Assembly (NCBI GenBank): GCA_030600555.1
Contig: JAUVLW010000002.1
Span: 1,335-65,334, forward strand
Reading direction: 5' to 3'
Source: Candidatus Aenigmatarchaeota archaeon
GTDB taxonomy: Archaea; Aenigmatarchaeota; Aenigmatarchaeia; QMZS01
DNA length: 64,000 bases
Numbering within the stretch: the first letter of the stretch is position 1; each line of letters opens with the position of its first letter. Made by a program: the position numbers and the translations under genes. Shown one piece after another: positions 15,848 through 52,761 of the stretch. Below the pieces are notes generated by a model. It did not search any database, was not told the origin of the DNA, and worked only from the letters and a program-made list of their open reading frames with translations.

Positions 15848-15957
15848 GGGAAGGTAGCTCAGGCTGGGAGAGCGCACGGTTGAAGACCGTGATGTCGTGG
15901 GTACTCTTTTCTTGAAATCTTCTGAAAAGACGCCACAATCAAATCCCACTCTTCCCA
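15848..15957 (+). tRNA. tRNA-Phe (anticodon GAA) with a ~36-nt intron inside the T-loop (after T54)
   Basis: Hand fold: acceptor GGGAAGG/TCTTCCC, D-arm GCTC-AGGCTGGGA-GAGC, anticodon arm CACGG-TTGAAGA-CCGTG, T-stem GTGGG/CCCAC. The T-loop T|TCAAAT is interrupted by actcttttcttgaaatcttctgaaaagacgccacaa, which contains the hairpin TCTTTTC/GAAAAGA. Discriminator A, no encoded CCA. Confidence 0.7.
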
Positions 15958-15973
15958 CTTAATTTTATTTTAG

Positions 15974-15999
15974 ATCAACATTTTAAATGTTGATTTTTG
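15974..15999 (+). terminator. Hairpin plus T-tract downstream of tRNA-Phe
   Basis: Perfect inverted repeat ATCAACATTT / AAATGTTGAT followed by TTTTT. Confidence 0.35.
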
Positions 16000-16098
16000 G
16001 TCAAAATCTAAAAAACGAGAAAATATTGATTTTAATCAGTTAAACAAAGAAGCGGAGAAGATAAGAAATTTAGATTTATATAATATTATTGACTTTAG

Positions 16099-17373
16099 AT
16101 GATTATGTATGTGTTAACTGAAGAAGGGGAAAAATATTTGAAAGAAGGATTGCCTGAAATAAATCTGATAAAAAAACTTTCAAAAAAAGAATTATCTGTT
16201 TCTGAGGCAAAAAAACTGGAGAATTTTAACATTGCTTTGCAGTGGGCAAAGAAAAACCAGTGGATTGAAATTGAAAAAGGAACAATGAAACTCACAAAAA
16301 CCGGAAATTCAGTTCTTGAGAAAAAATACGAAACTGAAGAATATTTGAAAGAAATTAAATCAGGAAAATTTGATGAGGATAAAATGAAAATACTATTGAC
16401 AAGAAATCTTGTAAGGAATGTCACTGAAAAAGAAATTGAAACCAAAAAATTAATTGGTAAAGAGGTGGTGGAATTGACTCCGGAAATTATTAAATCCGGA
16501 ATTTGGAGAGATATTAAGTTTAAGAAATATAATGTTGAATTTCCTGGAAAGAAAATTTATCCCGGAAAAAAACATCCTTTGAATCTAGTTTTTGAAAAAA
16601 TAAGGGAAGTTTTTATTGAAATGGGTTTTGATGAAATGCAAGGACCTTTGGTTGAAACCGCGTTCTGGAATATGGACTCAATGTTTATCCCGCAGGATCA
16701 TCCGGCGAGGGATATTCAGGATACTTTTTATCTTTCAGGAGAAGGAGATTTGCCTGACAAAAAAATAGTTAATAATGTTAAAGAGGTTCATGAGACTGGA
16801 GGCAATTCAGGTTCGAAAGGATGGAACCTGAAATGGGAACCTGAAATCGCAAAACAATTATTATTGAGAACACACACAACTTCTGTGACTTATAGGACTC
16901 TTGCGGGAGGAATTAAAATCCCCTGCAAGCGTTTTTGCATTGGCAGGGTTTTTAGGAATGAGGCTTCGGATGCAACCCACCTCCCTGAGTTTCATCATGC
17001 AGAAGGTTTTATTGCGGCGGAGAATCTTAATATAAGAACCTTGATGGGATTTATAAAATCATTTTATTCCAAGTTCGGATTGGACGAAGTGAAATTTAAA
17101 TTTAATTACAATCCCTACACAGAACCAAGTCTTGAGGCATTCGGATATTCAGAAAAGCTAGGGAGGTGGATTGAGTTAATAAATTCAGGAATCTTCAGAC
17201 CAGAATCTTTAGCTCCTTATGGAATTAAAGTTCCTGTGATTGCGTGGGGTTTTGGGATTGAAAGACTGGCAATGTTTATCTATGGAAATAAAAGCATCAA
17301 GGAAATTCTTGGACACACCTGTGATTTAAAATATTTGAGAAATTATGATTTATTGAAACTTGAAAAATGGTAA
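16099..17373 (+). CDS. pheS: Phenylalanyl-tRNA synthetase alpha subunit (archaeal type)
   Basis: Class II aaRS motifs (FRNE..., GFGIERLAM) in a 424-aa ORF. It overlaps pheT by 7 nt. Confidence 0.9.
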   Translation: MIMYVLTEEGEKYLKEGLPEINLIKKLSKKELSVSEAKKLENFNIALQWAKKNQWIEIEKGTMKLTKTGNSVLEKKYETEEYLKEIKSGKFDEDKMKILLTRNLVRNVTEKEIETKKLIGKEVVELTPEIIKSGIWRDIKFKKYNVEFPGKKIYPGKKHPLNLVFEKIREVFIEMGFDEMQGPLVETAFWNMDSMFIPQDHPARDIQDTFYLSGEGDLPDKKIVNNVKEVHETGGNSGSKGWNLKWEPEIAKQLLLRTHTTSVTYRTLAGGIKIPCKRFCIGRVFRNEASDATHLPEFHHAEGFIAAENLNIRTLMGFIKSFYSKFGLDEVKFKFNYNPYTEPSLEAFGYSEKLGRWIELINSGIFRPESLAPYGIKVPVIAWGFGIERLAMFIYGNKSIKEILGHTCDLKYLRNYDLLKLEKW

Positions 17374-18995
17374 TGTTAAATACGAGTCTGGGATATTTAA
17401 ATAGTTTAATAAAGAAGAAATTATCTTTGGACAAACTTGAGGATTTATTGTTCAATATGGGCTTTGAACTGGATGAAGTAAAAGGGGACGAGATTGCAAT
17501 AGAGATGACTGCTGAAAGACCTGATTTATTATGCGCTCATGGTCTTGCAAGAGCTATAAATCATTATCAAGGGGAAAAACCAAGAGAATACAAAACAAAG
17601 AAAAGCGGATATCAGGTTATTGTTGATAAATCTGTTTCGATGAGACCTTATACTGCATGCGCAATTGTTAGGAATATTCATTTTGATGATGAAGGGATTA
17701 AGCAGCTTATGCAGATGCAGGAGAAATTAGCGTCAACTTATGGGAGGAATAGAAACAAGTCAGCTTATGGATTATATCCTTTAAAAGGAATTAATTTTCC
17801 AATACATTATATTGCGAAAGACCCCAAAAAAATTAAGTTCAGACCTTTAGGTTTTGATAAAGAAGTAACTGCGATAGAAGTTGAACAAACTCATCCGAAA
17901 GGTAAAGAGTATAATTGGATTGCCAAGGACTGGAAAAAATATCCTTTTTTTATTGATGATAAAGATAATGTGATGTGTATGCTTCCTTATACAAATTCTG
18001 AAGATACTGGAAAAATTGATGATGCTACAACAGAAATTTTTATTGAGTGCACTGGCGTTGATTTGGAAAATGTAATGAAAGTACTCAATATTTTTGTTAC
18101 AATGTTTGTGGATATGGGTGGTGATGTTTATTCTCTGGAAATGATATATCCTGACAAAAAAATAGAAACCCCAAATTTAAATCCTGAAAAAATTAATCTG
18201 AAAAAATGCAATGCAGAAAGTATCCTTGGTTTGAAATTCTCTGATAAAGAAATATTTTCTCTTTTGGAGAAAACAGGTTATATAATAAAGGGAAATAAGA
18301 TTTTTGCACCCTGCTATCGCGCAGATATATTGCACGAGGTTGATGTTATAGATGATATTGCAAGAGCTTATGGACCCGGCAATTTTATTCCTGAGTTTCC
18401 GCAGGTATCAACAATAGGAAATTTAATGAGAAATACCAGAATAGAAACCAGAGTCAGGGAATTGATGGTTGGTCTTGGATTTCAGGAAGTCTTTACTCTA
18501 CTTCTTACCAGCAGGGAAGAGCAGTTTGGAAAGATGAGACTGGAAGGAGACGCAATATTGCTTGATGCTCAGGTTGATAAATCAATCAACATGATTAGGG
18601 TGTCTTTGTTGCCTGAATTGTTGAGGGTGCTAAAAACAAACCAGCATTATGAATTCCCTCAGAAAATATTTGAAGTTGGAAAAGTTTTATTTCCTGATAA
18701 GAAATCGGAGACCAGGTCAAGAGAGACCACTTATTTATCTTCAGTAATCTCAAATTCAATTTCCACTTATGAGGAAATATCTTCAGTTCTAAATTCAATA
18801 TTTTCCAATTTGAATATTTCTTATAAATTAAAGGAAACTGAAGACCGGAGATTTATAAAAGGGAGAGTTGCAAAAATAATTGTTGATGGAAAAGCGAGAG
18901 GGATAATCGGCGAGATTTGCCCCAAGGTTTTGGATAATTTCAAACTTGATAATCCCACAACAGGTTTTGAATTGGATTTGGATTTTTTAAATTAA
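17367..18995 (+). CDS. pheT: Phenylalanyl-tRNA synthetase beta subunit (archaeal type)
   Basis: 542 aa with B3/B4 and B5 domain-like segments. Operonic with pheS. Confidence 0.9.
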   Translation: MVMLNTSLGYLNSLIKKKLSLDKLEDLLFNMGFELDEVKGDEIAIEMTAERPDLLCAHGLARAINHYQGEKPREYKTKKSGYQVIVDKSVSMRPYTACAIVRNIHFDDEGIKQLMQMQEKLASTYGRNRNKSAYGLYPLKGINFPIHYIAKDPKKIKFRPLGFDKEVTAIEVEQTHPKGKEYNWIAKDWKKYPFFIDDKDNVMCMLPYTNSEDTGKIDDATTEIFIECTGVDLENVMKVLNIFVTMFVDMGGDVYSLEMIYPDKKIETPNLNPEKINLKKCNAESILGLKFSDKEIFSLLEKTGYIIKGNKIFAPCYRADILHEVDVIDDIARAYGPGNFIPEFPQVSTIGNLMRNTRIETRVRELMVGLGFQEVFTLLLTSREEQFGKMRLEGDAILLDAQVDKSINMIRVSLLPELLRVLKTNQHYEFPQKIFEVGKVLFPDKKSETRSRETTYLSSVISNSISTYEEISSVLNSIFSNLNISYKLKETEDRRFIKGRVAKIIVDGKARGIIGEICPKVLDNFKLDNPTTGFELDLDFLN

Positions 18996-19096
18996 TTTTT
19001 GTGTTTGTTGTTGGAAGTCAGATGAGTTTTACAAAATTATTTTATTTCAAAGTTGATTGCTCTTTGACCTGTTTATTTTAATCTATTATAAATATT

Positions 19097-20134: not shown

Positions 20135-20155
20135 TATTTATAAGATATTGTGTAA

Positions 20156-20479
20156 ATGAGACCTATATATAGTAAAGAATCTGTTTTGGAGTCTTCAATA
20201 AGGATAAGAGATATTTTGGATTCTTCAGAGTATCCTTTAACAAGAAAGGAAATAAAACAGAGGTATGAGCAAACCTATAGATACACTGACAGAGCCTATG
20301 ATAAAGCAATGGTTGAGCTTTCAAATAATAACCGGTGTACGGTAAAGGATTTATTGGAGGAATATCCCCAGGCAAGAATACCCTCAGAGATAAATCCAGG
20401 TACGGGGATATATTTTACAGGAAAAAACCAAATAGAAAATTGGGTTGATGGAAATAGAAGGATTGGTTTAAAGAAATAG
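20156..20479 (+). CDS. Hypothetical protein
   Basis: 107-aa ORF. No motif recognised. Confidence 0.35.
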   Translation: MRPIYSKESVLESSIRIRDILDSSEYPLTRKEIKQRYEQTYRYTDRAYDKAMVELSNNNRCTVKDLLEEYPQARIPSEINPGTGIYFTGKNQIENWVDGNRRIGLKK

Positions 20480-20557
20480 GAACAACCTTATAATTAGGTT
20501 TAAAGGGCTAACTCTGGCTTTTGGTGTTTATATAGTCTATATAATTAAACAAGTATT

Positions 20558-21889: not shown

Positions 21890-21920
21890 CGGGAAACTGA
21901 GATGGTATACTGTTCAGGGG

Positions 21921-22175: not shown

Positions 22176-22270
22176 ATTTAGAAATTTATATCAAAAATAT
22201 TTAATTTTAGAATAGGGTCAATTTTATTTGTTGGTTGTTGAATGTTTCTTCAAATGTTCCGGAACTGAAA

Positions 22271-22516
22271 TTATTTGTTTTGTTTTTGTCCTACAACAAT
22301 ATCCACAACATAAGCTTTTCCTCTTGTGCTGCTAACCTCCCCTATCAGCCCGTGATATCTTGGATGAGGGTAATTTTGGGAGCTTGAGTCTATTTTAATT
22401 ACAACCTTCTCGCCAACCTCGAATTTTTTAAGGTATTTGGTGATTCCTTCTTTCTTTTTATCTCTTATCAGTTTATTTCTTGATTTGCTGATTTTTCCGT
22501 GTCCAAACCTTGCCAT
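22271..22516 (-). CDS. rpl21e: 50S ribosomal protein L21e
   Basis: MARFGHGKISKSRNKLIRDKKKEG...YPHPRYHGLIGEV is the conserved L21e N-terminus and core. Confidence 0.85.
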   Translation of the reverse strand: MARFGHGKISKSRNKLIRDKKKEGITKYLKKFEVGEKVVIKIDSSSQNYPHPRYHGLIGEVSSTRGKAYVVDIVVGQKQNK

Positions 22517-22548
22517 AATATAGAATAAAATAAATTTAAATTAACATT

Positions 22549-23808
22549 ATGCGGTTGTTAAGTAGATTTTTTAAGAAAAAAGAGGAAATATCAACAAAAG
22601 ACCTGAATTTTGATGAAATTGGCAGTTTTGTGGACGAAGAATTTAGAGATAAGAAACAGGAACTTTTGAAGGTATCTGAAAAATTCCGAAAGTCTTTGGT
22701 TAATCAGCTCGATTCACTGGAAGGTCTTTTCAAGAAACTTCTGGATTCTGATTTTGAACCTGTTATTTTACAGGATAAAAGAGATATTTCAAATATTGTT
22801 GAAACCAGTAAAAAGAATTATTGTTCTAATTCAGAAAAATTAATTGTCCGGGTGGTGGATTCCTTAAATGAAAAACCTTCACCTTTTAAAATAAAATCAA
22901 TTGTTTTAGAGACTTTCAACAAATTAAATAATTTTTCAAGAGAAGCTCTTATTCTTTTACACCCTTTTGGGAAAGATATGAAGTGCATAGCTTCTGGGTT
23001 GAAAGAATTTAAGAAAGAAATAGATAATTTTGAATCGTTTCTTAATTCAGATTACAAACTCATTTCTGATGTGGAAGAAGCGGAAAGAATTGTTTATAAA
23101 ATAAATCATCTTGAAGAGAATAAGATTAAATCTGGTAAAAGAAAAGTTGAATTGGATAAAAAGACAACTGAGTTAAAAAAAGAGATGAAAACCCAGAATT
23201 TAAAACTTTCTGAGCTGGTTTCTTCAAAGGAATCAAGAAATCTCGCAAAACTTGAAAAACAACAAAAAGAATTTGAGTTGCAATCAGAGAAACTTATGGC
23301 GGATGCAACGCAATTAGTCTCCAGGGTCAGCAGACAGATTAAAGGATACATTCATAATTGCAAACCCGATAAAGAACAAATAATAAAAATTGAAAATTTT
23401 CTTGATAATCCTGAATTATTGCTCCAAAAATCTAATTTTTTTGTAGATGTGATTGAGAATGTAAAAAAAGACCTTGATAAAATAGAACCAGACGAAAAAA
23501 AAAGAAAGAAATTTTTGAGTATTGAAGAAAACATAAAAGATTTAATAAAAGAAACCCAGATAAAACATAAAGAAATTTCCAATAAACTTATTGAAAATAT
23601 CGCAGCCATAAAAGAATTAAAACCCAGATTAACAACTGAAAAATTTGAGAAGAATCTTAAAAAATTGGATGAAAATATGAATCAATTGGACGAAGAAAAG
23701 AAAAATATTAAATTGGAATCTAGTGGGGATGTAGGAGAATTATTAAATGAACTTGAAAAAGTATTGTCTTCTATTTCAAATAAGGAAATAAGAATTAATA
23801 AAAAGTAG
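22549..23808 (+). CDS. Hypothetical K/E-rich coiled-coil protein
   Basis: 419 aa, strongly heptad-like K/E/L composition. No catalytic motif. Confidence 0.45.
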   Translation: MRLLSRFFKKKEEISTKDLNFDEIGSFVDEEFRDKKQELLKVSEKFRKSLVNQLDSLEGLFKKLLDSDFEPVILQDKRDISNIVETSKKNYCSNSEKLIVRVVDSLNEKPSPFKIKSIVLETFNKLNNFSREALILLHPFGKDMKCIASGLKEFKKEIDNFESFLNSDYKLISDVEEAERIVYKINHLEENKIKSGKRKVELDKKTTELKKEMKTQNLKLSELVSSKESRNLAKLEKQQKEFELQSEKLMADATQLVSRVSRQIKGYIHNCKPDKEQIIKIENFLDNPELLLQKSNFFVDVIENVKKDLDKIEPDEKKRKKFLSIEENIKDLIKETQIKHKEISNKLIENIAAIKELKPRLTTEKFEKNLKKLDENMNQLDEEKKNIKLESSGDVGELLNELEKVLSSISNKEIRINKK

Positions 23809-24092
23809 CCCCGCGCGGATTCGAATACCGCCGAACTTCAAAAAACACTCGTCGTTCCAACAGTGCAAGCGTTTCCTTTGGAAACGATGCATCATTTGCT
23901 TTGCAAATAAATGCCTCATTTTGCTTTGCAAAATGAAAGTTCGATCATTTACCCTATCTTCGATTTCGTCTCAATAGGCTTTCCGCGGTCACAGGATCCA
24001 GGGTCCTATATGCCTAACCCTCTCCTTGTTTCATAAAATGACTTTTTTCGTTCATTCAATCAAAGAAAGCTTGGCCACTACACTACGGGGCT
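23806..24092 (-). tRNA. tRNA-Gln (anticodon CUG) with two non-canonical introns (~57 nt in the D-arm, ~157 nt at T-stem/T-loop junction 53/54)
   Basis: Hand fold on the minus strand: A1-U72 acceptor AGCCCCG/CGGGGCT with discriminator A, the archaeal tRNA-Gln hallmark. D-arm GTGT-AGTGGCCAA-GCAT split by an intron. Anticodon arm TAGGA-CCCTGGA-TCCTG (position 33 is C, which is unusual). Variable TGAC. T-stem CGCGG...CCGCG with the long intron before the TTCGAAT loop. The 3' end overlaps the TAG stop of the upstream CDS. Confidence 0.55.
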
Positions 24093-24120
24093 ATAATTTA
24101 CTTTTGTAATTTACTTTAAT

Positions 24121-27697: not shown

Positions 27698-29455
27698 TTA
27701 TCGCTTTAGTAATTCCAAAACTTCTTCACTGTCAACTCTTTTTCCATATTTTTTCATAATTTCCCCCATCGCCTTTTTCCCATATTTTTTTGTATAATTT
27801 CCAATAATTTTCTTCAATTCAACTCCTGAAATTTTCTCAAATCCTTTAATAGTTTTATTGGTTAAAACATTTTCTATTGCTTTTTTTACAATTTTTCCTT
27901 TTTCCAGATTTTTAAGAACAAATTCCAAATCTTTTTTTACAATTTTAATATTTTTTCTTTCAAGAGATTTCTTTTTATTTAGAATTAAATCGGCAATTAT
28001 TTTAGGTTCAACTTTATATTTTAAAAGTTCTTCAAATAAACCTAACTCTTTGTTTTTTGAAATTTGTTCCGCTAAATCTTTGCTTAAACCTAATTTTAAA
28101 AATCTTGCTGATTTTTCTTCAAGAGATTCTGGTAATTTTATCTTATTTAGATATTTGTTAAGGTCTATTTTTGGAAGGTCTGTTTCAGGGTACATTCTTG
28201 CGGCTCCGGGCAATTCACGGGCGTATCTTGTGAGAATATCTTCCGCAAATCTGGTTTCTTCAGGAATCCCTTTACCAAGAGATAAAATTCTTTTTTTAAT
28301 TAATTCCAAAGCATTCCTGCAGTTTTCCCCTGTTATCAGCAAAAACAAATCTTTTTCTTTTGCGCAAATTTCTTTTTTTAAATGATTAATTTCTTTTGAA
28401 TCAAACTGATATTTTTTAAGGTCTTCATCTGAATGGATAATTCCTCCAATCCCGAAAACTTTTGCATAATTTGCGATTTCTTTTCCCAGAGTTATTTCAC
28501 CACAGGGATTTTTAAATAATCCTGAAAGATTTTCTATTTTCAAACATAATATTTTTTCCTTATCTTTTAGAATTTTGCATTTTGATGATTTAAATAAATC
28601 TGTCACTTCTTTTTCAGTTAATTTTATTGGTTTATTTTTTAATTTTTCTTTTATTGAAATTAAATCCAGTTGTCTTTTAACTTCATTTTCTATTAATTTG
28701 TCAAGTTTTTTTAATTCCTGAAATCCTTTAATTTCTATTCTGGAACCTCCTTTTATTGAGATATTTACATCCTGTCTTATTGTTCCGATGCCTCTTTGCA
28801 CTTTTAGGCTTCTGAGCAACAATCCAATTTTTGATGCAAATTCTTTTGCCTGTTCAGGATGCCAGATGTCAGGGTGACAACTAAGTTCAATTAATGGAAT
28901 CCCTAACCGGTCAAGCCTGTAATAAATCATCTTTTCTTTTTCTTTAATTTTTGTTGCGCTTTCTTCTTCAAGATTTAGATCCTGGATATGGACTTTCCCA
29001 AAACTGGTTTCAATATAAGAATTCTCATTCCCTTTTCCAACCAAAGAAGTTCTTTGATAACCTGTGGTGTTGCTCCCGTCAATAACAACTTTTCTCATTA
29101 TCTGCAGTGAGTCGGGAACACACATTTTTAATATTTTGGCTAATTGCAAACTAATTAAAAGAGCCTCTTCGTTTAATTCATTTGGAAATTTTGAGTCTGT
29201 TTCAACAGAGCAGCAGTTTGGATAAGAATAATATGTAAATTCTTTATCTTTTAAGAATTCCTGCATTGCGGCTTTGTCAACTTCACCTGTTTCACTCGCC
29301 GTTGGTCTTAATTTTCTTGAGAATTCAAAAACCGGGTTTTCGTCTTCTGAAATTTCTGTTGAACAGTTGCAGAATAGTTTTGTTTTTGTTGCCAGTCTCT
29401 GATGTATTTCTATACCAATTTTTAAACCTATTTTTTTATAGTCAATCATAATCAA
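27698..29455 (-). CDS. gatE: Glutamyl-tRNA(Gln) amidotransferase subunit E (GatE; GatB/GatE family)
   Basis: N-terminal GIEIHQRL...KLFCNC motif of GatB/E. The 585-aa length and an internal insertion favour GatE. C-terminal YqeY-like tail. No gatD in the window. Confidence 0.65.
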   Translation of the reverse strand: MIMIDYKKIGLKIGIEIHQRLATKTKLFCNCSTEISEDENPVFEFSRKLRPTASETGEVDKAAMQEFLKDKEFTYYSYPNCCSVETDSKFPNELNEEALLISLQLAKILKMCVPDSLQIMRKVVIDGSNTTGYQRTSLVGKGNENSYIETSFGKVHIQDLNLEEESATKIKEKEKMIYYRLDRLGIPLIELSCHPDIWHPEQAKEFASKIGLLLRSLKVQRGIGTIRQDVNISIKGGSRIEIKGFQELKKLDKLIENEVKRQLDLISIKEKLKNKPIKLTEKEVTDLFKSSKCKILKDKEKILCLKIENLSGLFKNPCGEITLGKEIANYAKVFGIGGIIHSDEDLKKYQFDSKEINHLKKEICAKEKDLFLLITGENCRNALELIKKRILSLGKGIPEETRFAEDILTRYARELPGAARMYPETDLPKIDLNKYLNKIKLPESLEEKSARFLKLGLSKDLAEQISKNKELGLFEELLKYKVEPKIIADLILNKKKSLERKNIKIVKKDLEFVLKNLEKGKIVKKAIENVLTNKTIKGFEKISGVELKKIIGNYTKKYGKKAMGEIMKKYGKRVDSEEVLELLKR

Positions 29456-30358: not shown

Positions 30359-30457
30359 ATTTTTATTTGTATTATTTTATATATATCAATAAATTAACTT
30401 TAATTGATTATTTTGAATCAAAATTTATCCTAAACTAAAAATTTATAATTTAATTAT

Positions 30458-30667
30458 GCTGGGGTGGCCGAGTGGCTAAAGACTTTCTTTCTCAAAAGAA
30501 AGTCCTTAACGTCAAAGAAAGGAAAATTTGTCGCTTCGCGACATATATCCAAAAGACGTTAAATTCCACAATAAGGCGCTAGCCTGCTAAGCTAGTTTCT
30601 GTAATGGATCCCTGGGAAATCTTTTCTTTAACAGAAAGGTTCAGGTATTCGAATCCCAGCCCCAGCG
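30458..30667 (+). tRNA. tRNA-Ser (anticodon GCU) with two non-canonical introns (~92 nt in D-loop/D-stem, ~31 nt at T-arm position 53/54)
   Basis: Hand fold: acceptor GCTGGGG/CCCCAGC with discriminator G. Type-II D-arm GCC-GAGTGGCTAAA-GGC split by an intron. Anticodon arm CTAGC-CTGCTAA-GCTAG. 16-nt variable arm. T-stem CTGGG/CCCAG with an intron before TTCGAAT. Both introns contain strong hairpins. Confidence 0.6.
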
Positions 30668-30693
30668 TTTATATTATACTTATTGTATTTATT

Positions 30694-31341
30694 ATGTTGT
30701 ATCTGATAAATTTCAAGACTTATGAAGAAGGTTTGGGAGATAAAGGCATAAAGCTGGCAAATTTGATTGCGGAAGTTGGAAAAAAATTAAATGCGGAAAT
30801 ATGGGCGGCCCCTCAGTTCACAGATTTAAAAGAAATTTCAAAGATAGCCTCAACGTTGTCGCAGCATATTGACCCTGTTTCATTTGGTTCTCACACAGGT
30901 TCTGTTTTACCGGCTTCAGTTAAAGACGCTGGTGTGATAGGCACTTTAATTAATCATTCTGAGAGGAGATTACCTTTGGATAAAATAGAAGGAATTATAA
31001 ATGCTTCAAAGTTATCTGGCATAAAGACTGTTTGTTGTGCTGCTGATTTAAAAGAAGTGATGGAGATTGCAAAATTTTCGCCTGATTATATTGCTTATGA
31101 AGACCCTGAATTAATCGGTTCCGGCAGGTCAATAGCTCAGGAAAAACCCGAAGCAATTTCTGAGTTTGTGGGAGTTCTAAAAGATTTAAATCCAGGGATT
31201 ATTCCTTTATGCGGGGCAGGAATCGCAACCAAGCAGGATGTGCAGATTGCAAAAGATTTGGGCACGAAAGGAGTGTTGGTTGCTTCCGCGATTGTTAAGG
31301 CCGAAGACCAGAGGGAAGCTTTATTGAACTTGGTTTTGTAA
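30694..31341 (+). CDS. tpiA: Triosephosphate isomerase (archaeal short type)
   Basis: MLYLINFKTYEEG start and the GTLINHSERR active-site motif of archaeal TIM. Track start 30604 would overlap tRNA-Ser, so the ATG at 30694 is preferred. Confidence 0.85.
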   Translation: MLYLINFKTYEEGLGDKGIKLANLIAEVGKKLNAEIWAAPQFTDLKEISKIASTLSQHIDPVSFGSHTGSVLPASVKDAGVIGTLINHSERRLPLDKIEGIINASKLSGIKTVCCAADLKEVMEIAKFSPDYIAYEDPELIGSGRSIAQEKPEAISEFVGVLKDLNPGIIPLCGAGIATKQDVQIAKDLGTKGVLVASAIVKAEDQREALLNLVL

Positions 31342-31659: not shown

Positions 31660-31773
31660 ATTAGAAAGATTCAAATAAAAATTGTTGGCTGCGTCATACT
31701 GTCGCTCCGTTTCACTTCGCGATTTTTTCTTGCAGAAAAAACACATAACAGCGATTAAGAGGAAAATTCTTAT

Positions 31774-32814: not shown

Positions 32815-32882
32815 AATTACTTATAAATTATACATAAAAAAGTAATAATTGCTTTGTTTATTTTTTTAGGAAGATTAATTAT

Positions 32883-33111
32883 AGCCCCGTAGTCTAGCGG
32901 CCCATCTTTTTTCGATAGATTGTCATATGAAGCGAGGAAAGGGTCAAGGATTCTGGCCTTTGGAGTTCAAAGGAAAGAGCAAATATTAATTTGCGATGAT
33001 TGAAGTTAGCCAGCGACCGCGGTTCGAAGCAACACTTTTCAAGATAATTGTTGAAAAAGGTCTGCACCCCAAAACATAAATTAGGGTAGAACGAGAATCC
33101 GCGCGGGGCTA
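32883..33111 (+). tRNA. tRNA-Gln (anticodon UUG) with three introns (D-loop ~42 nt; canonical 37/38 ~44 nt; T-loop ~65 nt)
   Basis: Hand fold: acceptor AGCCCCG/CGGGGCT, same as the CUG isoacceptor. D-arm GTCT...GGAT interrupted. Anticodon arm CTGGC-CTTTGG|intron|A-GCCAG. Variable CGAC. T-arm CGCGG-TTCGA|intron|AT-CCGCG. Confidence 0.55.
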
Positions 33112-34397: not shown

Positions 34398-34772
34398 TTA
34401 AATCCTGCATATTTTAAACTCAACATTTCCATTGTAAATAACCTCTCTTATCTGTTCCTCTTTTTTTGTAAGCTTGCTTTTTCCGGATTTTACTTCAACA
34501 AATACAATTTTTTTCACATTACTATCTGCGGCGCCGTCAAATATAACAAAATCAATTGGAGACCCGAGAAATCTCGCATCTGTTGGATTAAAATTAAAAT
34601 CCGGAAGGAACGGAGCCAGCTGTTCTTTAAATTTGCCCTCCAGAACCAACCTACTTTTTTCAATTGCATCTTTTCTGATGGCTTTGATATCTTTTCTTCT
34701 TGAAATTAAGAGATAAATCAGGAGAATAATTATCAGAGAAAGAACGAAGATAATAATATAGAGAATTGTCAT
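34398..34772 (-). CDS. Membrane-anchored PD-(D/E)xK nuclease-like protein (Hjc/Mrr-cat-like core)
   Basis: N-terminal TM (ILYIIIFVLSLIIILLIYLLI) followed by IDFVIFDG (Asp) ... VFVEVKSGKSK (E-x-K), the canonical PD-(D/E)xK restriction-endonuclease-like arrangement. Confidence 0.45.
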   Translation of the reverse strand: MTILYIIIFVLSLIIILLIYLLISRRKDIKAIRKDAIEKSRLVLEGKFKEQLAPFLPDFNFNPTDARFLGSPIDFVIFDGAADSNVKKIVFVEVKSGKSKLTKKEEQIREVIYNGNVEFKICRI

Positions 34773-36473: not shown

Positions 36474-37037
36474 ATGGAAGACTGGAAGGCTGTTTCAGGG
36501 ATAATGGGTACAATAATCCTTCTATTTGCGTTATTATTGGCATTCCCGCCGCAAACTCCGGTAATTCCTGAAGGAAACGGCAATTTTCAGTTAAACAATA
36601 AGACGATGATTTGTGATAATTATTATATTTGTTTTTTAATTGACAATGAATGGCATAAACCCGCTTATAATGCAGGAACCAACCTGATTTTGGCAAAAGA
36701 GTATGAAATTGAGGATGCCGGGCAGATAAAGGAATTTTTTGAGTCAAAAAAAATAAATCTTGTTGTAGAGACTACTGAGGGAGTTGTAAAGACAATGTCA
36801 TTTGCGTATTATTTGAGCTATTATTATAATTCGTTCCTAAAAGACCCAAAAGATATAAATTCTACAGCTTTATCAGAATATGTGTCCGAAGAACCAGCAA
36901 TAATAATTCTTGGACCTGATGAAAATTTACAGGACAGTTCACTTGAATTTGACGGGAAAAATATATTTGTGAAGGGGAAGGATTCAGAAGGATTAAGTCA
37001 AGTTTTGGGAAAATTGCTCTTGATTATTGTTTCTTAG
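36474..37037 (+). CDS. Hypothetical membrane-anchored protein
   Basis: 187 aa, N-terminal TM. Occupies the position where spt5/nusG and rpl11 would normally sit between secE and rpl1. Confidence 0.4.
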   Translation: MEDWKAVSGIMGTIILLFALLLAFPPQTPVIPEGNGNFQLNNKTMICDNYYICFLIDNEWHKPAYNAGTNLILAKEYEIEDAGQIKEFFESKKINLVVETTEGVVKTMSFAYYLSYYYNSFLKDPKDINSTALSEYVSEEPAIIILGPDENLQDSSLEFDGKNIFVKGKDSEGLSQVLGKLLLIIVS

Positions 37038-37136
37038 ATATAATTAACGATTTTTAAGAACTTGCGGTTCTCGGATTAAATTAATCCAGTTATTTTATAA
37101 ATAAAGGAAAATAAGAATTTTCAAAGCATTTCTAAA

Positions 37137-37310
37137 TTATACCCCTAAATAAGAGAATATGAGGTAAAATATGAATCCAAAAAGACCTAATGCAAAAACC
37201 CCAATAGCAATAATCTTTGAATAACTAAGATATTCATCTTTACCCGGTTTTGTTGCAATTGTCAGTATTCTTTTGCATTGTTTTAGGAATGTTTTCAGTT
37301 TTTTCTTCAT
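37137..37310 (-). CDS. secE: Preprotein translocase subunit SecE / Sec61-gamma (57 aa)
   Basis: Hand-found, below the ORF-track cutoff: MKKKLKTFLKQCKRILTIATKPGKDEYLSYSKIIAIGVFALGLFGFIFYLIFSYLGV. Basic N-terminus, the KP...E(Y/F) motif and a single C-terminal TM match archaeal SecE. Confidence 0.65.
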   Translation of the reverse strand: MKKKLKTFLKQCKRILTIATKPGKDEYLSYSKIIAIGVFALGLFGFIFYLIFSYLGV

Positions 37311-37336
37311 TATAAAACTATGTAGGATATTTAAAT

Positions 37337-37786
37337 ATGGATTGGACTGATTTTCAATTGCTATATTGGTTTTTTAAAGACAGCAATAAGGTGATTTATT
37401 TAGGAACACCAGATATATTAAAATTTACTCTTATGAACTCAAAAGAGACTTACTATGTTTCTCCTGAAAAATTGGATTTAAATAGTCCAAAATTAAAAAA
37501 GTTTGAAGAGAACCCAGATGATTTAGAACTTTCCAGACTACCAAAAAAAGTTGATTGCCTTGTGAATTATCTTCCATTAAATATTGTCACCAGTTTCAAG
37601 GTCATGGGTAAATTTTTGGATTTATTAACTCCGGATAAAAAAATTCTGATTAAAATGCAGGTTCCAAAAAAACAGGTGCAGTACACAGAAGTGATGGTCC
37701 ACGATTTGTTGCCGCAATTTAATATTTCCCCAATGTCTTATCTTGATATTGAAGGGCATCGATATATTTTAGGTAAGAAGATTTAG
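37337..37786 (+). CDS. Hypothetical protein
   Basis: 149-aa ORF. No confident motif. Confidence 0.4.
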   Translation: MDWTDFQLLYWFFKDSNKVIYLGTPDILKFTLMNSKETYYVSPEKLDLNSPKLKKFEENPDDLELSRLPKKVDCLVNYLPLNIVTSFKVMGKFLDLLTPDKKILIKMQVPKKQVQYTEVMVHDLLPQFNISPMSYLDIEGHRYILGKKI

Positions 37787-45655: not shown

Positions 45656-45785
45656 ATAATAATTATAAAAAAACTATAAATTAATATAGGTTTGTTGTAA
45701 GTAAATTGTCGAATTGGTTGTTGTTCAATTTTATATTTCTTTTGTAATTGCTTTAGATAACACAATTGTTAAAAATAAATCTAAT

Positions 45786-46910: not shown

Positions 46911-46919
46911 ATTTCGTTG

Positions 46920-48705: not shown

Positions 48706-48789
48706 TTTCTTTAAAAAAGATAGGCTTATTTTTAAAAAACGGAGGATTTAAGCAGATTAAAGGGTTAAAAACTATTTTAAATATCTTTT

Positions 48790-50388
48790 ATGAGAAAATT
48801 AATTACTTCTGCCCTGCCTTATATACATGGGATTTCCCATTTAGGCAATATTGTTGGCAGTATGCTTCCCGCTGATGTATACGCAAGGTTTTGCAGGCTG
48901 AGGGGAAATGAGGTTTTATTTGTCTGCGGTTCTGATTCTCATGGCACAATGTATGAAGTTACTGCAGCGAAAATGAAGATAACTCCAAAAGAATTAGCAT
49001 ATAAAAATCATGAAAAAATGAAGGAAATTCTGAAAAAGTTTGAGTTAAATTTTGATTATTATGGAATTACTGACAGCGATGCGAACCGAGAAATGTCTTT
49101 TCACATATTTAATAAACTTGATGAAAACGGATATCTTAAAGAAGAAGAAGTTGAGAATGTTTATTGCGAGAAATGCAGTCGGTTTCTTCCTGACCGCTGG
49201 GTTGAAGGAAAATGCCCTTCTTGCGGAGGTCTTACAAGAGGAGACCAATGCGATGACTGCGGGAAGTTAATAGACGTAAAAGATATAGTAGAACCTTATT
49301 GCGTTCTTTGCAAAAGTAAAATTATTTTTAAGAAAACAAAACATCTTTTCCTCGACCTTCCAAAGTTTGATAAAGAATTATCGGATTTTGTAGATAATAA
49401 AAGTAAAAAATGGAGCAAACTTGCGAGAACAGAAACAATTGGTTTTTTGAAAAATGGATTGAAGCCAAGGGCGGTTACAAGAGACGCAACCTGGGGATTT
49501 AAAGTTCCCAAAGAAGGATATGAAAATAAAATTTTGTATGTGTGGTTTGATGCCCCGATAGGTTATCTGGCATTCACAAAAGAATGGTGCGAAAAAAATA
49601 ATCAGAAATTTGAAGACTGGTGGCAAAATGAGGGTACTGAGTTGACGCAGTTTATGGCAAAAGATAACACAATTTTCCATTCAATAATATTTCCTTCAAT
49701 GCTGATTGGTTGCAAAGAAAACTGGAAACTCGTTGACAGGTTAATGTCCTGCGGGTGGCTGAAAGCAAAAGGAATAAAATTCTCAAAGAGCCGGGGGAAT
49801 GGATTGACCACAGAAGAAGCCCTTGAGAAATATCCCGCGGATTATTGGAGGTTTGTTTTAATATCTTTATATCCTGAACAGGATGATTCTGTGTTTTCAA
49901 TGGAAGCTTTTAATGAAACAATAAACAATGAGTTTGCGGATATAATAGGAAACTTTGTCCACAGGGTTCTTTCTTTTTGTTATTCTAATTTTGGGGAAAT
50001 TCCTGAAGTTGAGAAGGAAACTGAAGCTGAATTGGTTGAAAAGGAATGCAGTGAAGTGCGTCAGACAATCACGAAAAATTTTGAGGACTGCAGATTCCAT
50101 GAAGCTCTAAAAAATATTGTCCATTACGCAAAACTTTCAAACGCATATTTTAACAACAGCGAACCGTGGAAGAAAGATGAAGAAGAGAAAAAAAGAATTT
50201 CTTATATTGCGGGAAATCTTGTGAAAAATCTCGCAGTAATGCTTTATCCAATTACCCCAAAATTCTCTGAACAGATTTTTGATTATCTTAACATAAAACC
50301 AGAGGATGTGAAATGGGATGACGCAAATAATTTTAATTTCTCAGGAAAGCTCAAGAAACCAGAACCTCTTATAAAGAAAATTGAATAA
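48790..50388 (+). CDS. metG: Methionyl-tRNA synthetase
   Basis: ALPYIHGISHLGNIVGSML (HIGH-like), CxxC...CxxC zinc knuckles, KFSKS (KMSKS-like) motif. Confidence 0.9.
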   Translation: MRKLITSALPYIHGISHLGNIVGSMLPADVYARFCRLRGNEVLFVCGSDSHGTMYEVTAAKMKITPKELAYKNHEKMKEILKKFELNFDYYGITDSDANREMSFHIFNKLDENGYLKEEEVENVYCEKCSRFLPDRWVEGKCPSCGGLTRGDQCDDCGKLIDVKDIVEPYCVLCKSKIIFKKTKHLFLDLPKFDKELSDFVDNKSKKWSKLARTETIGFLKNGLKPRAVTRDATWGFKVPKEGYENKILYVWFDAPIGYLAFTKEWCEKNNQKFEDWWQNEGTELTQFMAKDNTIFHSIIFPSMLIGCKENWKLVDRLMSCGWLKAKGIKFSKSRGNGLTTEEALEKYPADYWRFVLISLYPEQDDSVFSMEAFNETINNEFADIIGNFVHRVLSFCYSNFGEIPEVEKETEAELVEKECSEVRQTITKNFEDCRFHEALKNIVHYAKLSNAYFNNSEPWKKDEEEKKRISYIAGNLVKNLAVMLYPITPKFSEQIFDYLNIKPEDVKWDDANNFNFSGKLKKPEPLIKKIE

Positions 50389-50416
50389 ATTTGTTTATTT
50401 AAATAATAAAATAATT

Positions 50417-51166
50417 ATGGCGTGGGAGATTACATTGCTTTTATTTATCGTAGTAACTTTTTTTGCGGGAATCAGAATAATTGATCAATATGATAGGGGA
50501 GTTAAATTTAGATTTGGTAAATTTGCTGGTGTTCTTGAACCTGGATTCCGGTGGATAATTCCGATTGTAGATAGGATTGAGAAGGTAGATATAAGAGTAA
50601 TTACCGCGGATGTGCCTTCACAGGAAGTTATGACTCAGGATAATGTTCCAATCAAAGTAAATGGTGTTGTGTTTTTCAAAGTATTGAGGGCCGACCAGGC
50701 TGTGCTTGAGGTTGAGGAATACAAATATGCGGTTTCGCAATTAGCCCAATCCGCATTAAGGGATATGTGCGGAAAAGCAGAACTTGATGATGTTCTTGCA
50801 AAGAGAGAAGAAATCGGTAAGAAAATAAGAGAAGTGGTTGATGAGGAAACAGATCCCTGGGGAATTAAAGTTACGGATGTTAAAATCAAAGATATTGAAT
50901 TGCCTGAGAATATGAAGAGAGCAATGGCCCATCAGGCAGAAGCTGAAAGAGACAGGAGAGCAAGGATTATTCTTGCTGAGGCAGAGAGGCAGGCGGCTCA
51001 GGGTTTGCTTGATGCAGGCAGGATAATTGATAAATCCCCAGCTTCCTTAAAATTAAGATTATACCAGACTTTATCTGAAATTGCTTCGGAGAAGAATTCA
51101 ACAATAGTGTTCCCTTTCCCTGAGGAATTGATGGATTTTGTTAAGAAGACATCAAAGAAAAAATAA
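50417..51166 (+). CDS. SPFH/band-7 (stomatin/prohibitin-like) membrane protein
   Basis: N-terminal TM then a band-7 domain (RGVKFRFGKFAGVLEPGFRWIIPIVDRIEKVDIRV...). The track start at 50381 is a TTG inside the metG 3' end, so the ATG at 50417 (MAWEI...) is preferred. Confidence 0.8.
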   Translation: MAWEITLLLFIVVTFFAGIRIIDQYDRGVKFRFGKFAGVLEPGFRWIIPIVDRIEKVDIRVITADVPSQEVMTQDNVPIKVNGVVFFKVLRADQAVLEVEEYKYAVSQLAQSALRDMCGKAELDDVLAKREEIGKKIREVVDEETDPWGIKVTDVKIKDIELPENMKRAMAHQAEAERDRRARIILAEAERQAAQGLLDAGRIIDKSPASLKLRLYQTLSEIASEKNSTIVFPFPEELMDFVKKTSKKK

Positions 51167-51225
51167 GGGAAGAAATTTATAATAAAGTACAAAATATTCT
51201 AAAATCAGATTGGTTAAAAGGAGCA

Positions 51226-51912
51226 TTGATTGGGGGTATAATGTTTACCTTATCTTGTTATACTTTTGCTCTCTTGGTATTTATGTTTTCACCTGATAGA
51301 TGCACACCTTCAGGAGTAAATTTCGGTTGGTTTGAGTTTATTTTCTTGTTGAGAGGCATAGACTCATTTTCAGGATTAATGCTTGCCGGAACCCTTTGGT
51401 TTATTTTTGGAAGTATTATTGGTGGAATACTCGGGGAAAAATCCAAAAAGATTATTAAGTTTATGATCTTAGTTATAATAATAGAATTTATAATTATTTT
51501 TGGTTTGTTTTTTCTTACAAGTGGTTTTGCGGGACCGTCTCATCCAGAACGCCCAAGTTTAACTGGCATGGAAAAAGCACAGCAAAGCTCTAATCTACCA
51601 ACAGCTTATGAATGTTCAGAAAATATTATTTGTTTTGAGTTCATGGCTTCTTCATTAAATGAGATTAATTATCCTGCAAATCAATCTTATATGAATTTAT
51701 ACTTAGATGGTGTTCCAAAAGAACTTGGTATTTGGAATGGAGGTATTAATGGAATTGCTTGTTATAACAATCCAAAAAAGTTATCTCCCGGAAGAACTTG
51801 TTATGGTAAAATAAATGCAACCCCAAGAACCTGCGAAGAAGGAGCTATATTAGCACTAAAAATAAAACATTCCTGGGGCGCAGAAAAAACAGTTAGTGTA
51901 TTGTGTAAATAG
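51226..51912 (+). CDS. Hypothetical polytopic membrane protein with Cys-containing C-terminal ectodomain
   Basis: Four predicted TMs followed by a soluble domain with 6 Cys. Confidence 0.4.
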   Translation: MIGGIMFTLSCYTFALLVFMFSPDRCTPSGVNFGWFEFIFLLRGIDSFSGLMLAGTLWFIFGSIIGGILGEKSKKIIKFMILVIIIEFIIIFGLFFLTSGFAGPSHPERPSLTGMEKAQQSSNLPTAYECSENIICFEFMASSLNEINYPANQSYMNLYLDGVPKELGIWNGGINGIACYNNPKKLSPGRTCYGKINATPRTCEEGAILALKIKHSWGAEKTVSVLCK

Positions 51913-51973
51913 AACTTTATCTCGTTATAATTCAACAATTCTTATTAATTTCTTAAAACTAATTTAATATATT

Positions 51974-52561
51974 ATGAAAGGAAACTCAATAATCTGGGCT
52001 TTTGTATTAGGTCTTTTAATAATTGCGGGACTATTATTTATGGAAGGAGTTTCAGATTCACCCACGGGCGGAGATAATTCAACAGGAAATGTTTCGGTTG
52101 CAAAGAAAGTTTTGTTGAAAACCACTTTAGGTGATATTACGATTGAATTATACGGAGATATGCCAATTACCATAGGTAATTTTGAGGAATTGGTTGAAAA
52201 AGGAACCTATGATGGCGTAATCTTTCATAGGATTATTCCTGGGTTCATGATTCAGGGCGGAGACCCAACCGGAACCGGATATGGGGACCCAACAATACCA
52301 AATATCAAAGATGAATTTACCCATGAGGGAGGAAACAGAAATGAGAGAGGAACAATTTCAATGGCAAATGCGGGACCAAACACAGGTTCAAGCCAGTTCT
52401 TTATAAATCTTGTTGACAACAGTTTCCTTGATACCAAACATCCTGCTTTCGGGAAAGTTATTGAGGGAATGGATGTGGTTGACAAACTCGGAAAAGTGCA
52501 GACAAAACAGGGCGATAGACCTGTTGAAGAAGTTAAGATAATTAAAGCGGAGATGATTTAA
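51974..52561 (+). CDS. Peptidyl-prolyl cis-trans isomerase, cyclophilin type, with N-terminal membrane anchor
   Basis: Cyclophilin motifs FHRIIPGFMIQGGDPTGTG and SMANAGPNTGSSQFFI. Confidence 0.85.
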   Translation: MKGNSIIWAFVLGLLIIAGLLFMEGVSDSPTGGDNSTGNVSVAKKVLLKTTLGDITIELYGDMPITIGNFEELVEKGTYDGVIFHRIIPGFMIQGGDPTGTGYGDPTIPNIKDEFTHEGGNRNERGTISMANAGPNTGSSQFFINLVDNSFLDTKHPAFGKVIEGMDVVDKLGKVQTKQGDRPVEEVKIIKAEMI

Positions 52562-52656
52562 TTTCAGTAAACTTGTTTTTAGGATATTGGTAAATATTTA
52601 ATTTCAAATAGTTCTGGATTTTGCTTGCAATTTAGGAATCAATAATTTTAAAAATA

Positions 52657-52761
52657 TGCATCGATCGGGATTCGATTACAGCACTATTCCGGCAAACCAG
52701 AACAAATGTACCCGAATTGTTGGCTTGGAAGGCCAATGTCCTACCGTTAGACTATCGATGC
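52657..52761 (-). tRNA. tRNA-Gly (anticodon UCC) with a ~34-nt intron in the T-loop (after T54)
   Basis: Hand fold of the minus strand: acceptor GCATCGA/TCGATGC with discriminator A, D-arm GTCT-AACGGTA-GGAC, anticodon arm TTGGC-CTTCCAA-GCCAA, T-stem TCGGG/CCCGA. The loop T|TCGAAT is interrupted by ACATTTGTTCTGGTTTGCCGGAATAGTGCTGTAA. Same intron position as in tRNA-Phe. Confidence 0.65.

Follow-up and report, generated by a model that had tools for sequence, protein, structure and literature searches.

The tRNA genes in a 64-kb stretch of archaeal DNA (the window, which is the whole sequence analyzed) raise the question of whether they are functional genes with introns, mostly outside the canonical site (37/38), or genes that have been disrupted beyond use. 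We conclude with high confidence that there are five functional tRNA genes, and that each precursor carries one to three introns of the bulge-helix-bulge (BHB) type. The host is a Candidatus Aenigmatarchaeota (DPANN) archaeon of low GC content (33%). The gene content of the window is archaeal (aIF5B, archaeal PheRS, GatE, Hel308 and PCNA), and the closest relatives are metagenome-assembled genomes (MAGs) of Candidatus Aenigmatarchaeota. An identical sequence is also present in SRR18936874 and SRR18936875. A preliminary description of this DNA had guessed, in general terms, at a DPANN host, which is consistent with these relatives.

Interrupted tRNA genes and their detection

The window codes for tRNA-Phe(GAA), tRNA-Gly(UCC), tRNA-Ser(GCU), tRNA-Gln(CUG) and tRNA-Gln(UUG) (Table 1). 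The preliminary description had placed interrupted tRNA genes at these five loci, two of which are matched by the Rfam tRNA model as they stand, while all five are called by ARAGORN after splicing. Three genes have multiple introns with noncanonical sites (Ser, two; Gln-CUG, two; Gln-UUG, three). Only one of the nine introns is at the canonical 37/38 site; it belongs to tRNA-Gln(UUG) and had been recognized as the only one of its kind. The D-arm introns described for three genes (Ser and both Gln) were also recovered and are located in the D-loop (20a/20b in Ser, 21/22 in both Gln genes). The four T-loop introns attributed to positions 53/54 or 54/55 were correct, but a fifth, at 59/60 in tRNA-Gln(UUG), had been missed. 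This third Gln-UUG intron brings the total to nine, and all five genes thus have a T-arm intron (53/54, 54/55 or 59/60). The strand of tRNA-Gln(CUG), which had not been stated, is minus.

Table 1. tRNA genes of the window with their predicted introns and central helices
Feature	Position	Strand	Exons and mature length, or helix
tRNA-Phe(GAA) gene	15848..15957	+	exons 15848-15902, 15939-15957; mature 74 nt
Phe intron at 54/55 (T-loop), 36 nt	15903..15938	+	central helix GTGG/CCAC, 4/4 pairs
tRNA-Gln(CUG) gene	23806..24092	-	exons 24092-24071, 24013-23983, 23825-23806; mature 73 nt
Gln-CUG intron at 21/22 (D-loop), 57 nt	24014..24070	-	helix GGCC/GGTT; 9-bp inner helix
Gln-CUG intron at 53/54, 157 nt	23826..23982	-	central helix CCGC/GCGG
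tRNA-Ser(GCU) gene	30458..30667	+	exons 30458-30477, 30572-30616, 30648-30667; mature 85 nt
Ser intron at 20a/20b (D-loop), 94 nt	30478..30571	+	central helix GTGG/CCAC, 4/4 pairs
Ser intron at 53/54, 31 nt	30617..30647	+	central helix CCTG/CAGG; 8-bp inner helix
tRNA-Gln(UUG) gene	32883..33111	+	exons 32883-32904, 32948-32963, 33008-33028, 33098-33111; mature 73 nt
Gln-UUG intron at 21/22 (D-loop), 43 nt	32905..32947	+	helix GGCC/GGTC; 9-bp inner helix
Gln-UUG intron at 37/38 (canonical), 44 nt	32964..33007	+	helix CTTT/GAAG; outer helix = anticodon stem
Gln-UUG intron at 59/60 (T-loop), 69 nt	33029..33097	+	helix TTCG/CGAG; T stem outer; hBH
tRNA-Gly(UCC) gene	52657..52761	-	exons 52761-52710, 52675-52657; mature 71 nt
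Gly intron at 54/55, 34 nt	52676..52709	-	central helix TCGG/CTGT, 3/4 pairs

Standard finders miss most of these genes, as had been anticipated. The Rfam tRNA model matches the Phe (44.1 bits) and Gly (53.6 bits) loci, each with a T-loop insertion of about 40 nt; the loci for Ser-GCU, Gln-CUG and Gln-UUG are unmatched even at E ≤ 10. ARAGORN finds none of the five genes in the unspliced window. When the nine inserts are removed in silico, ARAGORN (default settings) calls all five with full cloverleaves and the right anticodons. If introns are allowed and thresholds are lowered, every ARAGORN call is either false or wrongly assigned; an example is a 'tRNA-Ile' at 22201-22844, which has a GC content of 19.6% and a 552-nt 'intron' that overlaps an ORF. 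A permissive Rfam search (E ≤ 10) yielded no additional tRNA fragments, only sub-threshold matches to a CRISPR repeat and to snoRNAs; the region has no direct repeats.

When the window was scanned independently for three features (an acceptor stem of 7 bp rich in GC, the bases U8-R9-G10, and a T stem), the same five loci and no other were retrieved. An initial acceptor-stem scan was too permissive (hundreds of matches), while the tightened version was specific. The remaining intergenic gaps of the window contain no further tRNA-like GC-rich islands. This agrees with the earlier statement that every tRNA gene of the window is interrupted. Intron-free duplicates, which had been named as potential counterevidence, were not found within the 64-kb window. 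Split or permuted tRNA genes were considered and rejected: the exons are colinear within 105-287 nt, and each gene lies inside one intergenic gap.

Splice junctions and the bulge-helix-bulge rule

In the proposed precursors, the four exon nucleotides just 5' of the 5' splice site would pair with the four intron nucleotides just 5' of the 3' splice site to form a 4-bp central helix, and each cut would lie 2 nt beyond the 3' end of the helix on that strand. We tested this rule (the BHB rule). Since an unfiltered BHB scan of each locus returns many chance motifs in AT-rich DNA, the splice sites were first set from the mature cloverleaf and from orthologues, and BHB pairing was tested only afterwards. 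All four central-helix pairs are formed in eight of the nine window introns and, when orthologues are included, in 26 of 31 introns. In 12 shifted registers (offsets -6 to +6), this is the case for only 0-2 of the 31. The helix is thus register-specific, and the junctions can form the relaxed BHB-like motifs that had been expected. For the Gly intron, an alternative register (GGTA/TGCT) is better paired and has a 9-bp inner helix; it was rejected because it would leave a 12-nt T-loop.

The motif would be supported by a single flanking helix. This would be an intron hairpin (HBh' type) for most introns in the D-loop and at 53/54 or 54/55, the anticodon stem at 37/38 and the T stem at 59/60 (hBH type). 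An inner helix of 2-9 bp is found for the Gly intron, both Ser introns (D-loop and 53/54) and both Gln D-loop introns. The Gly intron has a 4-bp inner helix and a 6-bp hairpin, and the Phe intron has 1 bp, a mismatch and then 6 bp. An outer helix of 3-5 bp is found for Gln-CUG 53/54, Gln-UUG 37/38 and Gln-UUG 59/60. No intron has both flanking helices, so that the motifs are of the relaxed form only (strict hBHBh' motifs: 0/9). Free-energy folding predicts the central helix for Phe 54/55 (pair probability 0.9-0.95 in the folded pre-tRNA), Ser 53/54 (local pair probability 0.93), the Ser D-loop intron and both Gln D-loop introns (0.98 in Gln-UUG); it is not predicted for Gly 54/55, Gln-UUG 37/38 and Gln-UUG 59/60. 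We saw no convincing C-box/D-box pair, as in C/D-box sRNAs, when the introns were inspected by eye. Further nucleotides of the exons (A1-U72 in both Gln genes, G73 in Ser, A73 in Phe and Gly) and the long variable arm of tRNA-Ser fit archaeal tRNA identity. Together, the sequence data support the interpretation that the inserts behave as archaeal BHB introns at noncanonical positions.

We infer that the archaeal splicing endonuclease (EndA), here probably with relaxed specificity, would cleave at both splice sites and that an RtcB-type ligase would join the exons, resulting in ordinary tRNAs of 71-85 nt. A gene for EndA was not detected in the window or in the fetched loci (Pfam on ORFs of at least 80 aa, tblastn and a motif search), nor was one for RtcB. 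The EndA from M. jannaschii, which as a query matches 1A79 at 371 bits, gave no tblastn match in the window or in L001-L011 (L numbers denote fetched loci). Alpha4 enzymes with an 'L3' loop have also been tied to tRNA gene disruption in DPANN lineages (PMC5829648). The enzyme could therefore be of a type other than alpha2beta2 or epsilon2, the two that the preliminary description had named.

The lack of an EndA gene in these sequences, the relaxed nature of all motifs and the three of nine introns with no BHB helix predicted by folding would be compatible with real inserts that are removed by a route other than EndA, or with some being retained in the mature RNA as expanded loops. We consider this very unlikely. 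Group I and group II introns are larger than the inserts, their ribozyme core alone comprising several hundred nucleotides. They were rejected given the insert lengths (31-157 nt) and because no Rfam intron family matched, whether at the gathering threshold or with E ≤ 10. A 4-bp helix in one specific register is the very feature that EndA measures. Retention is also at odds with intron-free orthologues (see below), which indicate that the tRNA body needs no insert. Finally, ARMAN-2 has a relaxed hBH intron at 59/60 that has been proven to be cut by its EndA (PMC3239211).

Exon conservation and intron turnover in relatives

Across 3-6 related genomes, conservation of the exons is 99-100%, in contrast to variable introns and flanking regions. 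Among genomes with 74-93% protein identity, a spliced sequence either is unchanged or has 1-3 nt differences; identity in the 80-nt flanks is 47-99%. At the level of sequence comparison, this shows that the exons are under purifying selection. Comparison with intron-free orthologues likewise shows that several junctions have been correctly assigned. For tRNA-Phe, such an orthologue (L014:2314-2387) reads GTGGGTTCAAATCCCAC over the predicted junction. For tRNA-Ser, the L001 and L003 orthologues lack the D-loop intron and read GTGGCT directly followed by TAAGGCG, exactly at the predicted junction, and the L005 orthologue, which lacks the T-loop intron, reads CCTGGGTTCGAATCCCAG. Spliced tRNA-Ser is 100% identical to that of L001, L002 and L003 despite different intron sets. 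In L013 and L019, the central helix of the Phe intron has CCGC instead of CCAC, with pairing kept as U.G.

A different explanation would be that these are decaying tRNA pseudogenes, disrupted by insertions, with functional intron-free copies elsewhere in the genome. It could be invoked because standard finders do not recognize the loci, because only 64 kb of the genome are in view, and because tRNA-Gln(CUG) (anticodon loop CCCUGGA) has an unusual C33 in place of the near-universal U33. Decay is hard to reconcile with exons that are conserved while introns and flanks diverge, and with inserts that are each bounded by a helix obeying the BHB rule. Compensatory stem changes are present, as in the anticodon stem of L005 tRNA-Ser. 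In about 0.2 Mb of Aenigmatarchaeota DNA, 20 of 21 tRNA gene copies are interrupted, and the single intact one is the Phe orthologue rather than an additional copy. We therefore consider pseudogenes extremely improbable and retain the interpretation as functional, intron-containing genes.

The introns appear, from these comparisons, to be evolutionarily mobile in this lineage, being gained, lost, moved and shared between tRNA genes.

(a) In genomes with 85-93% protein identity, a single tRNA gene may have its T-arm intron at 53/54, 54/55 or 59/60, or have none.

(b) One family of 54/55 introns is common to Gly, Ser and Phe genes. The Gly 54/55 intron, which is also present in the orthologues from L035-L038, resembles the Ser 54/55 intron of L001 and L003 (score 31 vs a shuffled maximum of 15).

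(c) The Gln isoacceptors (orthologues in L001 and L002 for Gln-CUG; in L001, L002 and L003 for Gln-UUG) have introns swapped between the two. The 157-nt intron of Gln-CUG and the 63-nt intron at 53/54 of L003 tRNA-Gln(UUG) are homologous. The former contains a 13-nt palindrome in three copies. A nested intron is unsupported; the additional ~94 nt seem to be an internal expansion that includes the three palindromes. In L001, each of the two Gln genes has an intron of the Gln-UUG 59/60 family at this same site, and the two copies are 98% identical. The canonical 37/38 intron of Gln-UUG shows 93-96% conservation in L001-L003.

Integrating viruses and plasmids usually attach at the 3' halves of tRNA genes. 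With a T-arm intron in every tRNA gene of the window, it is tempting to speculate that this intron load is adaptive and shields the 3' halves from integration (the Randau and Soll hypothesis), an idea that has been discussed for archaeal disrupted tRNA genes (PMC4033280, PMC3239211). We regard this as unlikely. Intron positions differ among close relatives, and the T-loop intron is absent in L005 Ser and L014 Phe; such positional variation and absences would be explained equally well or better by neutral or selfish turnover. Beyond the window, BHB introns might be currently mobile across the Aenigmatarchaeota clade, with nearly the whole tRNA gene set interrupted; we put this forward tentatively and with some doubt. 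A search of the accessible literature retrieved no specific report on tRNA introns in Aenigmatarchaeota.

Significance and comparison with known systems

Since ARAGORN recovers none of the five genes by default and Rfam only two, this lineage's genomes will seem short of tRNAs. The apparently absent ones would include both tRNA-Gln genes and tRNA-Ser(GCU), and this distorts completeness estimates and codon-usage inferences. For Aenigmatarchaeota, a splicing endonuclease that tolerates relaxed motifs is predicted. The relatives provide unusually clean cases of intron presence and absence, of position shifts in the T-arm and of sharing across tRNA genes, which are the kind of material needed to understand how tRNA introns spread in archaea. 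Thermoproteales have the highest recorded share of disrupted tRNA genes (about 87%). If the pattern seen here were genome-wide, the lineage would match or surpass this value and would provide population-level snapshots of archaeal intron gain.

A layout with noncanonical and multiple introns is known from Thermoproteales and from ARMAN-2 (PMC4090602, PMC3239211); the preliminary description had pointed to Thermoproteales and some DPANN lineages. Known noncanonical positions have been listed (PMC4090602), and three introns per tRNA gene is the known maximum (PMC3239211). Thermoproteales (Crenarchaeota) likewise have up to three BHB introns per gene, whose sites are spread over the D-arm, anticodon loop and T-arm (53/54 and 59/60 among them), and likewise have relaxed HBh'/hBH motifs. 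They also have similar introns in different tRNA genes, which has been read as intron transposition (PMC4090602, PMC4033280). Unlike the hyperthermophilic crenarchaeal Thermoproteales, the host analyzed here is a DPANN archaeon with a low GC content, and the T-arm is interrupted in every gene of the sample. [quoted passage not shown]

ARMAN-2 (Candidatus Micrarchaeum acidiphilum, with an epsilon2 EndA) is itself a DPANN archaeon and likewise has an hBH intron at 59/60. Its T-loop introns at 53/54 and 59/60 are adjacent, and relaxed hBH introns are cut in vitro by its enzyme (PMC3239211). It belongs, however, to another phylum, and the introns of the assayed substrates are shorter (13-25 nt) than those described here. 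In addition, the introns of the window occupy 54/55 and the D-loop. Increased tRNA gene disruption, together with incomplete tRNA sets from automatic prediction, is also found in Pacearchaeota, Woesearchaeota and Nanohaloarchaea, which have an alpha4 EndA with the L3 loop; the survey of these lineages did not include Aenigmatarchaeota (PMC5829648). The gene layout is thus known but extreme, and heavily disrupted tRNA genes are now extended to another DPANN phylum.

Interrupted tRNA genes in the window

The window has a GC content of ~33% and encodes aIF5B, archaeal PheRS alpha and beta, GatE, a Hel308-type helicase, PCNA, the ribosomal proteins uL1 and uL10, and DnaK/GrpE. GatE shares 85-90% identity with its counterparts in three Candidatus Aenigmatarchaeota MAGs and 74% with those in three others. 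The exact sequence is present in the Logan assemblies of SRR18936874 and SRR18936875.

ARAGORN at default settings calls no tRNA in the whole 64-kb window. Rfam at gathering thresholds gives only two tRNA matches there, 15848-15957(+) and 52657-52761(-), which coincide with the Phe and Gly genes of the preliminary description; both leave a T-loop block of ~40 nt unaligned. A rerun at E<=10 gave no extra tRNA signal in the window. The expectation that standard finders miss such genes was thus borne out. The genes for tRNA-Ser(GCU), tRNA-Gln(CUG) and tRNA-Gln(UUG) each occupy one intergenic gap, as GC-rich tRNA-like segments split by AT-rich inserts; the Gln-CUG locus (23806-24092) is on the minus strand. 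When spliced in silico, the five genes yield five complete cloverleaves (ARAGORN, default stringency), with the anticodons that had been named from the sequence alone. An independent anchor scan (GC-rich 7-bp acceptor stem, U8-R9-G10 and T stem) recovered precisely these five loci and no others. As far as this tool-independent search shows, the window thus has no uninterrupted tRNA gene, in line with the preliminary description; atypical tRNAs could escape the scan because U8-R9-G10 is demanded. The tRNA-Ile(GAU) that ARAGORN proposes in intron mode at 22201-22844, with an intron of 552 nt, is a false positive: its acceptor stem is all A/T, its GC content is 19.6%, and it overlaps an ORF.

Exon boundaries were set from the cloverleaf first and then tested against bulge-helix-bulge (BHB) geometry (each strand 5'-HHHH-BB|B-3', the two HHHH tetramers paired). 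The five genes contain nine introns, including one in the T arm of each.

Introns of the five tRNA genes (window coordinates)
Gene	Strand	Position	Coordinates	Length (nt)
Phe-GAA	+	54/55	15903-15938	36
Gly-UCC	-	54/55	52676-52709	34
Ser-GCU	+	D-loop 20a/20b	30478-30571	94
Ser-GCU	+	53/54	30617-30647	31
Gln-CUG	-	D-loop 21/22	24014-24070	57
Gln-CUG	-	53/54	23826-23982	157
Gln-UUG	+	D-loop 21/22	32905-32947	43
Gln-UUG	+	canonical 37/38	32964-33007	44
Gln-UUG	+	59/60	33029-33097	69

As described previously, three genes have a D-arm intron (in each case in the D-loop), and only one intron is canonical. The four T-arm introns reported at 53/54 or 54/55 were also recovered, but the fifth gene, Gln-UUG, is interrupted in this arm as well.

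The Gln-CUG 53/54 intron exceeds its homologue of 63 nt in L003 by ~94 nt (L numbers denote loci from related Aenigmatarchaeota genomes). It carries a 13-nt palindrome (TTTGCTTTGCAAA) three times at 23872-23932, with 23-25 nt spacing. A nested intron was considered; with these three palindromes, internal expansion looks like the better fit. tRNA position 33 is U almost universally. The Gln-CUG anticodon loop (within 23983-24013, minus strand) is CCCUGGA, with C33, and is the same in the L002 orthologue, while the L001 orthologue has an ordinary CUCUGAA loop.

Splice motifs and orthologues in relatives

The central helix is fully paired (4/4) in eight of the nine window introns; that of Gly 54/55 has three pairs. 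The pairing rule was examined in 31 introns, from the window and from orthologous genes of relatives. In the true register, 26 have 4/4 central-helix pairs (mean 3.81), as against 0-2 of 31 in each of twelve shifted registers (means 0.7-2.2). Flanking helices occur on one side only, and none of the nine window introns has the strict hBHBh' form. The relaxed HBh' type, in which a hairpin of the intron adjoins the 5' bulge on its inner side, prevails among the introns in the D-loop and at 53/54 or 54/55. In Gln-UUG, two introns are of the hBH type, the outer helix being the anticodon stem (37/38) or the T stem (59/60); the Gln-CUG 53/54 intron has an outer helix of 3 bp. For Phe, both Ser introns and both Gln D-loop introns, the central helix is highly probable in free-energy folding. 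Folding predicts none for Gly 54/55, Gln-UUG 37/38 and Gln-UUG 59/60, so that support for these comes from geometry and comparison, not from thermodynamics. For tRNA-Gly, with its imperfect central helix, no intron-free orthologue was found to confirm the 54/55 junction.

The strongest support comes from the comparison with relatives. In L001 and L003, tRNA-Ser lacks the D-loop intron, and GTGGCT|TAAGGCG there agrees exactly with the junction predicted. The T-arm intron of tRNA-Ser lies at 54/55 in these two and at 53/54 in the window and L002. L005 has a D-loop intron but none in the T-loop; in L006 and L007 both introns occur in shorter form. Despite these differences, spliced tRNA-Ser is 100% identical among the window, L001, L002 and L003. 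L013 and L019 share the 54/55 intron of tRNA-Phe, with an A-to-G exchange that turns a central-helix U-A into U.G. In the more distant L014 the gene is uninterrupted, and the junction sequence equals the predicted spliced product. tRNA-Gly has its 54/55 intron in another four contigs too, which show single-base differences. The D-loop and canonical introns of Gln-UUG are present throughout the four genomes (window, L001, L002, L003), but the position in the T arm shifts: 59/60 in the window and L001, 53/54 in L002 and L003. The T-arm intron of Gln-CUG is at 53/54 in the window and at 59/60 in L001 and L002. The exons are under selection, being 99-100% identical to those of relatives, compared with 47-99% for the 80-nt flanks.

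In ~0.2 Mb of Aenigmatarchaeota DNA (window, L001-L007, L012-L014, L019), 20 of 21 tRNA gene copies are interrupted, which is suggestive but no genome-wide estimate, since these are orthologues of only seven genes. L007 contains a tRNA-Gly(GCC) at 11037-11141 (+) with a T-loop insertion of ~31 nt, and a tRNA-Trp at 10807-10995 (-) with an anticodon-loop intron of ~115 nt.

Neighbourhood of the tRNA genes

AATTAT lies directly 5' of Phe (15842-15847), Ser (30452-30457), Gln-UUG (32877-32882) and Gln-CUG (24093-24098, minus), and GTTTAT directly 5' of Gly (52762-52767, minus). AT-rich TATA-like tracts are found farther upstream. In relatives, conservation over the 80 nt preceding the genes is mostly 82-96% (L019 Phe: 58%).

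The PheRS alpha and beta genes (16099-18995, +) directly follow tRNA-Phe, an adjacency kept in L013 and L019 and not in L012. GatE, which acts on Glu-tRNA(Gln), is encoded between the two tRNA-Gln genes (27698-29455, -). The mechanical ORF for triosephosphate isomerase (30604-31341, +) overlaps the last tRNA-Ser exon. Since the Pfam match begins only at residue 34 and an ATG lies in frame at 30694, translation probably begins downstream of the tRNA gene.

GC-rich islands in AT-rich intergenic DNA (7590-7714 and 31680-31715; e.g. AAGACGGAAGGGGCGGAAATCT upstream of ORF 7715) have no Rfam match (E<=10). They may represent small RNAs or gene starts that escaped recognition. Rfam CRISPR direct-repeat families score 28.5 bits at 37093-37137 and 25.5 bits at 37351-37379 (gathering 47-48). 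There are no direct repeats in 36900-37500, so these matches were rejected as chance.

Proposed splicing mechanism, intron exchange and comparison with known systems

Splicing most likely proceeds by the standard archaeal mechanism. The splicing endonuclease EndA would recognise a BHB-like fold and cleave within each bulge, after which the exons would be joined by a ligase of the RtcB type. As all nine motifs are relaxed, EndA would have to tolerate hBH and HBh' substrates. The preliminary description had proposed an (alpha-beta)2 or epsilon2 enzyme. An alpha4 EndA with an 'L3' loop, from several DPANN lineages, also accompanies strongly disrupted tRNA genes (Kaneta et al., PMC5829648), so the subunit type need not be either of those two. 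No EndA gene was found in the window or the fetched loci (Pfam on every ORF of at least 80 aa; tblastn with M. jannaschii EndA, a query that matches PDB 1A79 at 371 bits). A 124-aa ORF at 34398-34772 (-), ~1.3 kb from tRNA-Gln(UUG), is not EndA. With an E-value of 2e-38 it matches PF10107 ('endonuclease related to archaeal Holliday junction resolvase'), although the match spans only positions 59-158 of the 159 in the profile.

Introns are shared between tRNA genes. Between the two Gln genes of L001, the 59/60 introns show 98% identity, and they match that of Gln-UUG in the window at 93-95%; the L003 Gln-UUG 53/54 intron is homologous to the Gln-CUG 53/54 intron of the window. These homologies point to exchange between the two Gln isoacceptors. 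The L001/L003 Ser 54/55 intron aligns with the window Gly 54/55 intron at a score of 31 (maximum of 2000 shuffles: 15) and with the Phe intron at 25 (shuffled maximum: 17), which suggests a single intron family at the same T-loop site of three unrelated tRNA genes.

From a similar pattern in Thermoproteales, intron transposition has been inferred (PMC4033280, PMC4090602). Relaxed motifs, genes with as many as three introns, and non-canonical sites, 53/54 and 59/60 among them, are also already documented (PMC4090602, PMC4033280). The precedents named in the preliminary description are confirmed for Thermoproteales and, within DPANN, for ARMAN-2 (PMC3239211). In the latter, 56% of tRNA genes are disrupted, one tRNA has 53/54 and 59/60 T-loop introns, and a 59/60 hBH intron is cut in vitro by its epsilon2 enzyme (PMC3239211). 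ARMAN-2 thus shares with the window a 59/60 hBH intron, the 53/54 site and a DPANN host. Our literature search found no paper on tRNA introns in Aenigmatarchaeota. The kind of gene layout is already known; what stands out is its density (nine introns in five of five genes, each with a T-arm intron) together with the turnover of introns among very close relatives.
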